From assembly GCA_965218435.1 (NCBI GenBank), contig CBDCKW010000009.1, positions 2,944,001 through 3,008,000 of the forward strand: 64,000 bases of DNA. The letters run 5' to 3'. The DNA is from Truepera sp. (GTDB taxonomy: Bacteria; Deinococcota; Deinococci; Deinococcales; Trueperaceae). Each line of letters begins with the position of its first letter. The first letter of the stretch is position 1. Made by a program: the position numbers and the translations under genes. The notes under the pieces were generated by a model. The model was not told the origin of the DNA, did no database searches, and was given only the letters and a program-made list of their open reading frames with translations. Below, one piece after another: positions 51,590 through 58,284 of the stretch.

Positions 51590-52582
51590 CTACCGGTATT
51601 TAGAAAACTGCGAGTGACTTCTGAACCAGGCGTCCCGAGCTTTGGTCCAAACGGACTTGTCGGTAGTTACAGTGAAGCAGGTAGGGCTGTCTTTTTTAAG
51701 TGACTCGAGATAACGCTTGTCGCCACCGGTATAGACGACGGTATTTTTGTTGCCCCGGCAGGCACTTTCATTAAGCGGGTTGCTGTCAATCCCCGGATTC
51801 TTACCAGGGTCCATATGGCGAACATTTTTAGGCAGTAAGAAGACGTTGTTTTTAAGTGTAAGCTTGCAACCGGGCTCTCTAGTTCTCACAGTCCATTTCC
51901 ATACGGCGACGCTGCGTTTGGCGTCCATTGCAATCAGACTATTTTCGATGGTAAGCGACTGACCTTTAATGGTCTTGGTTTCTTTGCGGCAAGAAACCCC
52001 CATAAAAGCACTGTCAATTAAGACGTTGCTGACCCGGCCACTGTTGTTCCGGTCGTTTTCGATCCCGTCGTCACCGGCGTGCTTGACATAAGAATCGCGG
52101 AAGGTCCAGTTGGGGTTGTTATCTTTCCAAGTGATACCATCGCCCGTATTAAGAACTGCCACATTTTCAACAATGGCGTTTGGGGTGTTATATAGGCGAA
52201 AAACTGGGGATCCATGATAAACGTTCCACGAAGCACTAAGGCTAAGACCAATGTCATAGACACCACCCGAGAGGCAAAAAGAACCTTTGTTATCGTTGCT
52301 GAGAAAAGCGGGTGGACCGCCCACCATCTTCGCGTTCCGCGCGTCAACACGGGCGTTGCTCTGGCGGCTTACCACCACAGTCTTACCGTAAGTGCCGCTT
52401 AATTTAATAAGTTTGCCGCTGCTGTTCAAGCACGAGCTTGCTTGAGTTGCTAAAGACGTTTCGGGAACCTGGGGCTCGAGGCCGCTGTTACAAGCTGCTA
52501 AAAATACCAGAACGCTTACAAGTGCAAGATACGAGGCCCGGGTCCACACTTTTGTCCCCTTGGCGTTGACGGTGTTTTTCAA
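51590..52582 (-). CDS. Lipoprotein, probable right-handed beta-helix (pectate-lyase-like fold)
   Basis: Lipobox LAAC; N/D-rich repeats IVENV, FRDS, DDGIEND, IENS, LKNN; GAAAGGA SD. Confidence 0.7.
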   Translation of the reverse strand: MKNTVNAKGTKVWTRASYLALVSVLVFLAACNSGLEPQVPETSLATQASSCLNSSGKLIKLSGTYGKTVVVSRQSNARVDARNAKMVGGPPAFLSNDNKGSFCLSGGVYDIGLSLSASWNVYHGSPVFRLYNTPNAIVENVAVLNTGDGITWKDNNPNWTFRDSYVKHAGDDGIENDRNNSGRVSNVLIDSAFMGVSCRKETKTIKGQSLTIENSLIAMDAKRSVAVWKWTVRTREPGCKLTLKNNVFLLPKNVRHMDPGKNPGIDSNPLNESACRGNKNTVVYTGGDKRYLESLKKDSPTCFTVTTDKSVWTKARDAWFRSHSQFSKYR

Positions 52583-52597
52583 TGTGTTTTGTCCTTT

Positions 52598-52768
52598 CGA
52601 TCAGGCCACAATCGGCCCGCGCAACTCATTACCGAGTTGCGTTAGAGATGGGAAACACGCGTCCACTCGCAAGTGGCTACACGTAACCTTCTACTTGTTA
52701 CGCGCTGCGCGTTTCTTGACGTCAACAAATTGTAATTAATGTTTGAGGGGAGGCCATCCGCTCTAACG
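52598..52768 (-). ncRNA. Candidate structured cis-regulatory 5' leader RNA (unassigned family)
   Basis: Nested helices with G-U pairs valid only on the minus strand; begins just after a TACCTT -10-like box. Confidence 0.5.
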
Positions 52769-53176
52769 AAGCTAAAGGTATCCTAGGCAAATATTAAAAT
52801 TGTTAAGTGTTTATGAGCAAAAAATGAAAGATGCAATAACGAAAGTTCATGCGTAAGGGAAATTCGACGCTTTTCCTCCTCAAATTGGCTCTCATAGAAA
52901 GTCCGGGAAGTAGCGAATCACGCCGATTTTGCAGGTCTTTTTGGCAAATGTGCTTGGATAACCATGCCAATTTGTTGTGCAAAGCATTTGGTTAGTGTTT
53001 CCGGTCACCCTTGGCAGTTTAGAAATGGCGAATAAAACGCCCGACTACAGCGGTGAAGATTTGGCTGCTTATATATTCGGCGTGGTCTTATCGGGGTATC
53101 TGGAAAGGACCACCTAAAGCTGTGCCTACGCTACTGGAGCCTTGCTTTGAGTTAGCATAAACGTGAGGGGGTAACT

Positions 53177-55501: not shown

Positions 55502-56671
55502 CTAGCTTGCAGCCTCGTCAGGCGAGTTTTGAGCAGCTCGAGCGGCTTCTGCTTCATCTTTGCGTTCCGCCACCTCAGCAGCGGCGTCAGCGGTCGTCCA
55601 GCCCTGCGCTAGCGCGTGCTCGGCGGCGGCAGCGGTGTCTTGGGTCAACATCAGGGTGCTGCCGTCCGCCCCCAGCTTACGGGCAAGTTTTTGCACGCTC
55701 TCGCGCCGCTCGGCGTCCGCCACATCGCGGATATAGATGCCTAAAATACGCCCCGGAAAATCGTGTACGACTTCGTGATAGATTTCCGGGTCTTCTTGTC
55801 CGGAGTCGCCGATCAGGATAAAGGGCAGCTTTGGATACGTCTCTAAAATTTGGCGAATCGCCGCCTTTTTGTGCTCGCCGTGTGTGGTCGGTAACAGTTC
55901 GGTGGCGCTGACGCCCCAGTCGCGGAGCAAAATCGGGCCGAGCGGAATCCGGTTAAGTGCCAGAAACTCGGTCAGCACGTCGTAGAGGTTCCAGGGACTC
56001 GAGGACACGTAAAAAAGTGGGTTACGCGTCCCGGCACTGCCGCGTCCCAGCGCCTCGTAAAAGGCTGCGACACCCTCGAAGGGGAGCCGCGTATAGGCGT
56101 TGCCGAACAGCACCTGTTTAGCTAAACTGCGGAGGCTCGTCGCGCCGGTCTGCAGTACGGTGTCGTCAATGTCGCTGATGACGCCGAACTGCGCGTCCGC
56201 TGGGGGAATGAGGATAGACGCCTCGGCGCGGACCGGCGGGGTGCGTTTGGGATGGGTGAGCTCGAGCTCCAGCGTCAGCAGCTGATCGTCAGGTTCGACG
56301 TTAGAGACGGCTGACGTGGGCGGTTCTACCCCCGGAAGTTCAAGCCAGTGAGCGATATGCCCCTCTTCGTCGGTTTGTAACGGTGCCTGAAAATCCGGCG
56401 CAGCCGCCAACGTCACGAGCAGTTCAGCGTCCGCCACCTCACCGCTAAGGAAGCGTTTCCAAGTATTTTTGAGGTTGTCCCAAGCCGAGTCCTGCTCAGT
56501 TGCAGCGGCAATCCCCCTATCCGCTAACACGCGGCCCAAGACAAACGCCCGCCCCGGTACGCCGTAACCTAAGTAAGTTTGAATCAGCAAGCGGTCATCG
56601 TCGTCAACCCTTGAAAAAGCCCGGTCAACCTGCGTTTCGGCTTGGTAGATAAGTTTGTGCCAACGTGACAT
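55502..56671 (-). CDS. App1/DUF2183-family phosphatase, paralog 1
   Basis: ISDIDDT, YVSSSPWNLY, LIGDSGQEDPEIY. Confidence 0.88.
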   Translation of the reverse strand: MSRWHKLIYQAETQVDRAFSRVDDDDRLLIQTYLGYGVPGRAFVLGRVLADRGIAAATEQDSAWDNLKNTWKRFLSGEVADAELLVTLAAAPDFQAPLQTDEEGHIAHWLELPGVEPPTSAVSNVEPDDQLLTLELELTHPKRTPPVRAEASILIPPADAQFGVISDIDDTVLQTGATSLRSLAKQVLFGNAYTRLPFEGVAAFYEALGRGSAGTRNPLFYVSSSPWNLYDVLTEFLALNRIPLGPILLRDWGVSATELLPTTHGEHKKAAIRQILETYPKLPFILIGDSGQEDPEIYHEVVHDFPGRILGIYIRDVADAERRESVQKLARKLGADGSTLMLTQDTAAAAEHALAQGWTTADAAAEVAERKDEAEAARAAQNSPDEAAS

Positions 56672-56704
56672 CTCAGCTCCAGCTCTAAACGTTATGGGAT
56701 GGTG

Positions 56705-57955
56705 TTACTTCTTCTCGCGCGTGGTTACTACGGTTACCGAGGCGCGCACCGTTTCAGAATCCGCTACAACTTGGGTCGGCTCGTTGGACGGCCCGAAGGC
56801 GGCGTCCAAAAAGGTTGTGTCGCGCTCTTTTTGGACGCGCACCTCCTCGAGCGCAGCCTCACCTATCCAGCCCTGGGTAAAGGCGTGTTGCGCGGCGGCT
56901 AAGGTGTCGCCGACCAAAACGAGCTGACTACCCTGCTCTTTAACACGCTGCGCGAGCGCCTCGACCGCGCCCCGCCGCGCCTCACCGCTGACGTTACGAA
57001 TATAGATCGCTAAAATACGCCCCGGATAATGCTCGACGATCTCACCGTAGATTTCGGGGTCTTGCTCCCCGGAGTCGCCGATCAAAATAAAAGGCAAGTC
57101 GGGAAAGGTATCTAAAATACGTTTGATCTCGTGCTGCTTAAACGCGCCGTGTTCACCCGGAAACAGCTCACCGGTACCGCCGCGCCAAGCCCGCAGGTTA
57201 AGGGGTCCTAACGGAATCTGTCCGAGGGTAAGAAACTCTAAGAGCAGGTCGTAAAGGTTCCAGGGACTCGACGACACGTAAAAGAGTGGGTTATGGGCCG
57301 CGCCGCGCCCCTGCTCGAGCGCCCGGTAAAAGGCCGCCACGCCGCGAAACGGTAGCCGCGTATGGGCGTTACCGAAGAGCACCGCACCTGCAACGCGCAC
57401 CCAGCGCGTGACGTCGGTCTGCACGACGGTGTCGTCCATATCGCTGATCACGCCGAACTGCGCGTCGGCCTCCGGCACGAGCACCCGCCCGACCGCCTCG
57501 TCTGCCTCGACGCCCTTTCGCTGGGGTGACAGCAGTGTATAGCTGACCTCGGCCCACCCCGCCGGAACCGCCTCAGGGAGCGTGAGACGCCCCTTAAAGT
57601 AGCCCTGCGCGTCAGCCCCCAGTTCTCCCTCCCCGCCCGGATAGACGACCTTGAGGCGGGCATTGGGCACTTTATCGCTGACAAACCGTTTGTACGTATC
57701 TGAAAAGTTGCGCCAGCGGCTCGCGTCGGGGGTTGCTAACGTAAGGCCCTTGTCTTCGATCACCCGGCCCCGGATAAAGAGCTCGGTCGGGGTTCCGAAA
57801 CTTAGGTAAGGCACGATTTCAAAGGGGCGCTTCGAACGGAAGCGGCCAAGCTTGCGGAAGGTTCTGAAGTCGCGCTCGAGACCCAGCACAAACCCGGTGA
57901 GCATTCTTTTCGCCCGCCGCACCACGCTTTGTGCCACCATAGCCCTAGCCACCAC
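56705..57955 (-). CDS. App1/DUF2183-family phosphatase, paralog 2 (start uncertain)
   Basis: ISDMDDT, YVSSSPWNLY, LIGDSGEQDPEIY. Confidence 0.88.
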   Translation of the reverse strand: MVARAMVAQSVVRRAKRMLTGFVLGLERDFRTFRKLGRFRSKRPFEIVPYLSFGTPTELFIRGRVIEDKGLTLATPDASRWRNFSDTYKRFVSDKVPNARLKVVYPGGEGELGADAQGYFKGRLTLPEAVPAGWAEVSYTLLSPQRKGVEADEAVGRVLVPEADAQFGVISDMDDTVVQTDVTRWVRVAGAVLFGNAHTRLPFRGVAAFYRALEQGRGAAHNPLFYVSSSPWNLYDLLLEFLTLGQIPLGPLNLRAWRGGTGELFPGEHGAFKQHEIKRILDTFPDLPFILIGDSGEQDPEIYGEIVEHYPGRILAIYIRNVSGEARRGAVEALAQRVKEQGSQLVLVGDTLAAAQHAFTQGWIGEAALEEVRVQKERDTTFLDAAFGPSNEPTQVVADSETVRASVTVVTTREKK

Positions 57956-58207: not shown

Positions 58208-58284
58208 GGGCGATTAGCTCAGTTGGTTAGAGCGCGTCGCTGATAACGACGAGGTCAGTGGTTCAAATCCACTATCGCCCACCA
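58208..58284 (+). tRNA. tRNA-Ile(GAT)
   Basis: GGGCGAT..ATCGCCC-ACCA acceptor stem, TAGCTCAGTTGG D arm, CGTCG-CTGATAA-CGACG anticodon arm, GTTCAAATC T arm. Confidence 0.97.

Follow-up and report, generated by a model that had tools for sequence, protein, structure and literature searches.

A conserved 5' hairpin in Trueperaceae lipoprotein leaders and two candidate small RNAs that could pair with it

Introduction

Bacterial small RNAs (sRNAs) that limit surface proteins include MicL (acting on Lpp), MicA and RybB, which need Hfq and block translation initiation. Regulation at the 5' end of the message is represented by the pairs RoxS-yflS in Bacillus subtilis and FasX-ska in Streptococcus pyogenes, in which the sRNA pairs at the mRNA 5' end and controls decay by RNase J, a nuclease that needs only 4–5 unpaired 5' nucleotides (PMC5419742). 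Staphylococcus aureus RNAIII forms loop-loop complexes with the rot and coa mRNAs that cover the ribosome site and recruit RNase III (PMC8383071), and PprS (Dsr2) of Deinococcus radiodurans stabilises pprM mRNA by binding in its coding region (PMC8217566). For the branch of the Deinococcota considered here, the literature searched, mainly open-access main texts, describes no sRNA or leader motif; the main text of PMC8632094 mentions no Truepera, Deinococcus or Thermus, and the supplements of motif-discovery papers could hold unnamed versions.

Here, we analyze the leader of a lipoprotein gene within a 64,000-nucleotide stretch (the window) of the 4.8-Mb genome of a Truepera sp. (G000), identify a conserved hairpin at its predicted 5' end, and propose that this hairpin is addressed by two trans-encoded sRNAs. 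The proposed arrangement shares with RoxS and FasX a trans sRNA, pairing between a C run and a G run, a site far upstream of the ribosome site, and a host with RNase J. It differs in that the polarity is reversed (sRNA G-rich, target C-rich), the site lies at +13 to +23 of the predicted transcript inside a 5' hairpin rather than at the extreme 5' end, pairing would expose rather than shield that end, and two sibling sRNAs are predicted, in a different phylum and with no Rfam sequence match. Because the extreme-5'-end and polarity features fail, the leader-sRNA pair is not a member of the RoxS/FasX type.

GC-rich hairpin-loop kissing as the likely first step recalls RNAIII with rot and coa, in contrast to which the predicted seed site here precedes the start codon by ~170 nt and the sRNAs measure 80–95 nt. 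The proposed regulation of lipoprotein or surface-protein mRNAs by sRNAs that answer to an envelope-type regulator is a likeness to MicL, MicA and RybB, but Hfq was found in 0/5 genomes tested. With PprS the system would share its phylum and an action on mRNA stability, and would differ in having its site in the leader and not in the coding region. Also relevant within the genus is the c-di-GMP-II riboswitch (RF01786), under whose control stand longer paralogs from the window protein's family and which follows one copy of the hairpin.

Results

Layout and fold of the window leader

The gene behind the leader encodes a 330-aa lipoprotein, and the leader carries the following features.

51590–52582 (−): lipoprotein gene, 330 aa, TTG start at 52582, LAAC lipobox
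52592–52598 (−): Shine-Dalgarno (SD) sequence GAAAGGA, largely open
52604–52641 (−): SD-proximal hairpins P5 and P6 (GCAACTC hairpin 52640–52621, GGCC hairpin 52617–52604)
52640–52651 (−): CCATCTCTAACG, partner of a proposed outer helix, a minor alternative in this copy only
52652–52715 (−): three-way junction with closing stem P2 and hairpins P3 and P4
52715–52707 and 52660–52652 (−): P2 closing stem, GAAACGCGC/GCGTGTTTC
52705–52679 and 52676–52663 (−): inner hairpins of the junction
52741–52767 (−): the defining element, 5'-terminal hairpin P1, 27 nt, which has a C.C mismatch and a loop containing GGCC
52746–52756 (−): predicted sRNA seed site UGGCCUCCCCU, +13 to +23
52775–52780 (−): −10 box TACCTT of the TANNNT type; TAnnnT stands here in 16 of 17 copies
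52793–52827 (−): four phased T(C/A)AT/TTAA half-sites, ~47, 36, 26 and 17 nt before the −10 box

TANNNT is the −10 motif of Deinococcota (PMC12340547), and from its position leader transcription is predicted to start at ~52768. The lipoprotein is predicted to form a right-handed beta-helix (AlphaFold mean pLDDT 84.2); its match to Pfam Beta_helix (E 0.0033) falls below the cut-off, and the closest solved folds are PL3 pectate lyases, pectin methylesterase and RbmB, none at E ≤ 0.001. On this modeled fold the protein likely acts on or binds polysaccharide. Its family has six members in G000. Elsewhere in the window, a tRNA gene at 58208–58281 (+) is the sole Rfam match, and two similar ORFs of 389 and 416 aa, marked by a DIDDT/DMDDT motif, stand in tandem at positions 55502–57955, a pair that is kept in G004 and G005.

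A sequence-only reading had described the leader as a highly structured RNA, a candidate new riboswitch or cis-RNA, and all of the helices that it named are present. The minus strand folds with a z-score of −3.11 (0/200 shuffles), against −1.22 for the plus strand (22/200 shuffles). This degree of structure is mostly private to the window copy: 10 of 11 other leaders tested have z-scores between −1.1 and +0.6, and in 4/11 the antisense strand is the lower in energy. The inner junction stem is real, with 8–9 of 9 pairs kept in four orthologs and two-sided changes in three columns. In a related contig all six changed pairs of the three junction stems remain paired and four other pairs are broken (two terminal, one loop-closing, one long-range); substitution density there is not clearly lower in stems (12/76) than outside them (13/64). 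The cores of P5 and P6 are unchanged or still paired in that contig, the changes falling in loops and terminal pairs, and homologs have one SD-proximal hairpin where the window copy has two. The junction keeps its structure among orthologs with its sequence free, and paralogs fold differently; the large fold, as a supposed aptamer, is not sequence-conserved beyond orthologs, which speaks against the riboswitch assignment.

The outer helix of the same reading, in which the 5' segment pairs with CCATCTCTAACG, exists as a pairing of at most 12 bp with a 3-nt bulge, but it is not conserved and has P < 0.01 in transcripts starting at 52769–52767. It costs 7.3 kcal/mol, and the local hairpin P1, which the reading had missed, forms with a probability of ~0.99 when the RNA is folded from the predicted start. 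The outer helix prevails only when the folded RNA includes the −10 box or when the transcript ends at 52640, where it is favored by 3 kcal/mol. The best duplex of its arm is no better than shuffles in 12/12 leaders (p 0.18–0.88), CCATCTCTAACG is altered in related contigs (two at 52648, one at 52651), and forming the helix would destroy the invariant 5' hairpin.

Translational control, the function first suggested for the leader, is not supported in the form of SD occlusion, as opening the window SD costs ~1 kcal/mol. In a thermodynamic model only, leaving the hairpin free, forcing it or forbidding it shifts the SD opening cost by at most 1.2 kcal/mol in 12/12 leaders and by 0.1 kcal/mol in the window. 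With the 3' arm of P1 held single-stranded the window cost is still ~1 kcal/mol (1.0 to 1.0), and across 16 leaders the drop never exceeds 1.5 kcal/mol. The window leader has no called terminator.

The 5' hairpin P1 is the conserved element

P1 is the sole consensus structure of the whole-leader alignment (RNAalifold). In the first 12 copies 92.9% of its cells are paired, versus at most 58.6% with slid partners, and its covariation score is equalled by 9 of 500 shuffles, a modest signal that related sequences can also yield. The run GGCCUCCC is unchanged in 17/17 leaders and the stems vary: the 3' arm is invariant, and the 5' arm and lower stem differ in sequence and length. The upper stem reads GCGGG/CCCGC in G002 and G003, the 5' arm is shorter in G054–G056, and the lower stems of five diverged copies differ in sequence yet pair. 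Folding returns the hairpin with unpaired GGCC for 16 of the 17 copies, and in 16/17 it begins no more than 3 nt from the predicted 5' end. Compared with a related public contig, the window copy has 0 listed changes in 25 nt of the hairpin versus 25 in 157 nt. An invariant 3' arm opposite a variable 5' arm suggests a partner outside the hairpin.

Rfam at both gathering and E-value thresholds matches nothing in the leader, which bears out the earlier statement that no riboswitch consensus is recognizable; scans that took in 11 homologous loci and 8 further loci likewise gave the leader no catalogued family. Also supported is the view of the leader as a selected sense-strand cis-RNA, placed after a conserved −10 box and in front of a beta-helix lipoprotein gene. 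The leader hairpin is a real, uncatalogued, lineage-restricted cis element.

Two other roles were considered and rejected. For a leader-peptide attenuator, ORFs from the hairpin AUG or GUG range from 4 to 269 aa in three frames, with no start codon in G002 and G054–G056. For a leader acting in trans as an anti-SD RNA there is no enrichment, CC following GGAGG in 37 of 549 G000 starts.

Distribution and cargo

Nine Trueperaceae genomes and two metagenome contigs together supply 17 leaders with the P1 element, in every case before a lipoprotein gene; the nine genomes represent two related genera and are not independent. Protein and DNA searches of 41 genomes located orthologs and paralogs within the genus, with DNA similarity confined to the first ~60 nt of the query and a core of 19 nt right after the TAnnnT box. 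Pattern scans yielded 10 copies in four genomes (6/128 genomes matched, two of them in coding sequence), and a metagenome scan gave 2 true copies among 24 loci. The remaining exact-pattern matches (10/12 in genome contigs, 22/24 in metagenomes) were rejected as chance occurrences that have no promoter, hairpin base or lipoprotein, and viral contigs gave 0 exact matches. The hairpin model R1 returned 10 strong matches, followed after a gap by a next score of 19.6 bits; 11 weak matches outside the family were rejected, every one being inside a long open frame. A promoter pattern led to the diverged leader copies in G002, G003, G055 and G056, the 17th copy was found in G054, and of six promoter matches with 2–3 mismatches inspected outside the genus, one was real (G056) and five were not. 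As both R1 and the exact pattern miss five diverged copies, their results do not imply a wider absence of the element.

The genes behind the leader vary, comprising beta-helix proteins, an unrelated Pfam-less domain in G001–G003, and, at a G005 polysaccharide locus, a protein with a GH115_C-like domain. The copies have leader ends and signal peptides in common through duplication. By sequence, the portable module consists of a promoter array, −10 box, hairpin, variable folded spacer, SD and lipoprotein signal peptide. The G005 copy keeps the hairpin without the promoter array, upstream of a c-di-GMP-II riboswitch.

Several further observations concern these leaders. The Pfam-less lipoprotein family stands behind the leader at L132:6787–7935, L133:6780–8537, L152 and L153 (two scanned). 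A second conserved hairpin with a CGGCU-type loop precedes the SD-proximal stem in the leaders of G001–G003 and G054–G056 and is absent from the window type. One G000 paralog (C9:3458083–3459012, −) has a window-like −10 box and start region but lacks the hairpin, and GTTAC repeats replace its TCAT array; from its sequence, this promoter has apparently been swapped.

Two sRNA-like units contain the complement of the invariant run

The sequence GGGGAGGCCA, complementary to the invariant leader run, is present in two uncatalogued sRNA-like units unlinked to the leader. G000 holds 23 GGGGAGGCC sites; two are the opposite strands of leaders, and two fall in these units.

G000 C9:1376816–1376907 (+): predicted sRNA-1, with −10 box, 5' hairpin and terminator-like hairpin
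G000 C9:148533–148452 (−): predicted sRNA-2, with −10 box, 5' hairpin and terminator-like hairpin

Both units are 80–95 nt long and present AGGCCA in a short G-C hairpin; judged by sequence, each is an unlinked noncoding unit with a promoter and a terminator. Their strand was set by G-U pairs, the −10 box and the U tract, the last of which is short or interrupted for sRNA-1 in G003, G004 and G054–G056. Stems covary in both units, and neither has an Rfam match.

Each of the nine genomes has sRNA-1, in one case with a substitution in the seed, and in G000–G005 the unit is divergent from a ThuA-family gene. Its seed is located in the large loop of the terminator-like hairpin. The longest invariant run of sRNA-1 in five genomes, GGGGAGGCCACC, is the complement of the leader's own invariant run. 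In G003 the sequence is GGAGAGGCCACUCC, with a compensated hairpin (GGAG/CUCC) that keeps the loop. Homologs in G055 and G056 were chosen from 29 loci examined of 32 pattern matches; the scan that found the G054 homolog gave 28 matches, of which those in G001–G003 and G054–G056 were judged. An sRNA-1 model matched 0 of 113 genomes from the other families of the order, and this model is insensitive, missing the diverged G055 and G056 copies too. sRNA-2, built of GGGG-AGGCCA-CCCC and a covarying terminator, occurs only in G000, G004 and G005 (3/128 genomes).

Other sequences were noted alongside. The 5' hairpin of sRNA-1 has a CGCUGCCCAG-like loop common to G001–G003 and G054–G056 that may be a second seed. 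The noncoding sequence GGGGAGGCCG lies in the loop of a strong hairpin at G055:C1:4216082 and G056:C4:1270693 and exactly matches the CGGCCU leader loop of those genomes; from its sequence it is likely an other-strand terminator and could be a third sRNA or chance. G056:C4:3050255, considered as a compensated seed, was rejected as it continues a coding region. There is also a 15-nt antisense match at G000 C9:1764855.

Leader-sRNA complementarity

In G000 the UGGCCUCCCCU site forms 10 consecutive Watson-Crick pairs with sRNA-1 and 11 with sRNA-2. Across genomes, 7 of the 8 tabulated have 9–11 consecutive pairs and G003 has 7, both partners there being changed without compensation. The pairing table shows an invariant core and a few edge changes, none compensated; the seed's terminal A faces A or C in G002, G055 and G056, and G054 has the same letters. 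Leader and sRNA-1 co-occur in 9/9 genomes holding either one, and the G054 leader was predicted from its sRNA-1 and then found as one of four pattern matches.

The seed 10-mer occurs in 2 of 141 noncoding terminator-proximal units of G000, a count reached by 2 of 1260 permutations (the real sequence included); the 10-mer length was picked after the matches had been seen. A 7-mer match is present in 167 of 4675 genes, and within this set the two leaders of G000 come 4th and 5th for sRNA-1 and 5th and 6th for sRNA-2. Duplex energies are −27.2 and −27.9 kcal/mol; opening costs 6.7 plus either 5.4 or 7.1 kcal/mol, for a net of about −15 and −14 kcal/mol. A dimer fold returned the seed duplex for sRNA-2 and not for sRNA-1, whose seed sits in a closed loop that the program cannot pair.

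GGCC is self-complementary, such that the core cannot separate an antisense from a mimic, and the main rival to pairing is a CsrB-like titration in which an RNA-binding protein recognizes GGCC hexaloop hairpins and is sequestered by sRNAs that imitate the leader hairpin. Both RNAs indeed carry NGGCCN on a short G-C stem, the stem of the G003 sRNA has changed compensatorily with its loop kept, and leader and sRNA do not covary with each other. Their flanks, however, are complementary and not alike: U follows GGCC in 17/17 leaders and A precedes it in 12/12 sRNAs, and it is the leader that carries the C run and the sRNA that carries the G run. With a single site per sRNA and CsrA in 0/5 genomes tested, we regard titration as unlikely.

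An alternative that we rate as improbable takes the hairpin for a mere 5' stabilizer inherited with a duplicated promoter-leader-signal peptide module, the sRNAs acting elsewhere and their match being incidental. The nearness of the hairpin to the predicted 5' end, the sharing of leader ends and signal peptides by duplication, and the existence of other 7-mer matches all suit this view. A stabilizer would not need an invariant loop and C run, and both the permutation test and the G054 prediction oppose chance.

c-di-GMP-II riboswitches in the genus

All five genomes tested carry the c-di-GMP-II riboswitch, 15 in total, mostly before lipoprotein genes that include longer paralogs of the window gene; G000 has copies at C9:1747912 and C9:1812391. 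In G005 one (C8:3330735–3330816) begins 66 nt past the hairpin copy in the polysaccharide-synthesis locus, a tandem that could possibly give two-input control. Several c-di-GMP-II leaders have a 5' strand that, by eye, is able to compete with the riboswitch P1 and a downstream anti-SD; this suggests that several of the genus riboswitches are translational OFF switches. A decayed c-di-GMP-II-like leader with internal deletions lies upstream of the paralog at 2668168 (G000:C9 ~2667400–2667550), missed by Rfam and scored at 66 bits by a local profile.

The window leader itself does not match RF01786, and a genus profile recovered none of the 11 leaders scored, the twelfth holding the true riboswitch. 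A common origin with the c-di-GMP-II leaders, plausible by eye, gained no support, and the hairpin model misses the 5' hairpins of those leaders.

A small-molecule riboswitch, for example one for a cyclic dinucleotide, would accommodate the missing Rfam match, the junction covariation among orthologs, the c-di-GMP-II riboswitches of the longer paralogs and the one tandem copy. Against it, conserved sequence covers only ~20 nt and offers no aptamer-sized core, no leader terminator was called, the SD is not coupled to the conserved hairpin, the outer helix is not conserved, and the genus c-di-GMP-II leaders show no similarity; we place this explanation slightly behind the stabilizer. The leader element is best read, on present sequence comparisons, as the putative target half of a new sRNA circuit rather than as a riboswitch.

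A proposed mechanism at the mRNA 5' end

We consider it fairly probable that the leader 5' hairpin, complementary to the sRNA seeds, is opened by loop-loop pairing and that this changes mRNA decay, probably via RNase J. The hairpin would be a docking site for two trans-encoded sRNAs that control mRNA stability and not the ribosome site. The sRNA loop AGGCCA would kiss the leader loop UGGCCU, and pairing would extend into the G run and C run (9–11 bp), unzipping a weak hairpin (−7.7 kcal/mol). About 12 nt at the mRNA 5' end would then turn single-stranded and be open to RNase J. The TIGR00649 family, which we take to be RNase J, scores over its cut-off in 5/5 genomes tested. Decay as the output is reached by exclusion, because the opening cost of the ribosome site changes little or not at all.

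The direction of the effect is the weakest step. Within this model, repression by faster decay has slightly better than even chances in our estimate, since pairing would leave ~12 unpaired 5' nt and RNase J needs 4–5. Stabilization is a lesser but substantial possibility, because Deinococcus sRNAs are described as stabilizing their targets (PMC8217566).

Roles could also be reversed or mutual, with real pairing through which the abundant lipoprotein leader acts as a sponge and keeps the sRNAs from other targets. In favor of this, the site lies well away from the SD, on which no effect is predicted, and an SD-like seed could have other partners; no conserved alternative target was identified, however, and CC after GGAGG is not enriched among G000 starts (37/549), leaving the sponge a notch less probable than a riboswitch.

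Promoter array and candidate regulator

The half-site array upstream of the −10 box is conserved in 11 of the first 12 copies, and an array-based pattern found four more. Its 11-bp half-site spacing makes it a likely binding array for a regulator of the OmpR/PhoB type. A promoter matrix found no other such site in G000. Half-sites stand at about −48 and −37 before sRNA-1 in nine genomes by eye, both flagged by script in eight; in G056 the script flagged the second half-site pair of sRNA-1 at −49 and −37 and also at −44. Judged from the phased half-sites only, one OmpR-type regulator would probably drive both the lipoprotein and the sRNA-1 promoters, forming a feed-forward loop. Least probable of all, in our view, is that P1 is a palindromic DNA operator just past the transcription start: an imperfect 25-bp palindrome does span +1 to +27 and adjoins the clear regulator array, but its arms vary around an invariant asymmetric center, arm length differs in G054–G056, and one-sided changes in the first 12 copies give sense-strand G-U pairs.

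The sRNA-2 promoter has half-sites at −26 and −15 and a direct-repeat box.

sRNA-2 promoter: box CTTAAGCT-N3-CTTAAGCTT, a direct repeat
Other examples of the CTTAAGCT box: G000:C9:457894, G000:C9:794450 and G001:C1:2589260

This box occurs 2–6 times per genome in six genomes of the genus, against 0 in the control. Behind it stand lipoprotein genes, a glmM-like gene and a HIT-like one, all named by reading the sequences, which suggests a candidate envelope regulon of a response regulator.

Discussion

Docking of two sRNAs on the 5' hairpin may be part of a broader design, which we put forward tentatively: a portable, sRNA-addressable 5' cap in Trueperaceae, in which a palindromic GGCC-loop hairpin with its promoter and signal peptide has been shuffled onto unrelated glycan-active lipoproteins. 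Two sibling sRNAs that need no Hfq would recognize the cap by loop-loop kissing, one of them with its seed inside a terminator loop, and stacking the module on a c-di-GMP-II riboswitch could create a two-input gate for matrix-remodeling surface enzymes.

For RNA discovery the case carries a caution, in that a short invariant orphan hairpin may be one half of an intermolecular helix. If the proposed mechanism is true, these genomes would hold a complete sRNA circuit with two sRNAs, defined targets, a seed, a candidate nuclease and regulator boxes. It would represent Hfq-free regulation by the opening of a 5'-terminal hairpin, and not by the covering of a ribosome site or a 5' end, and one family of surface enzymes would be divided between control by a c-di-GMP riboswitch and control by sRNAs.
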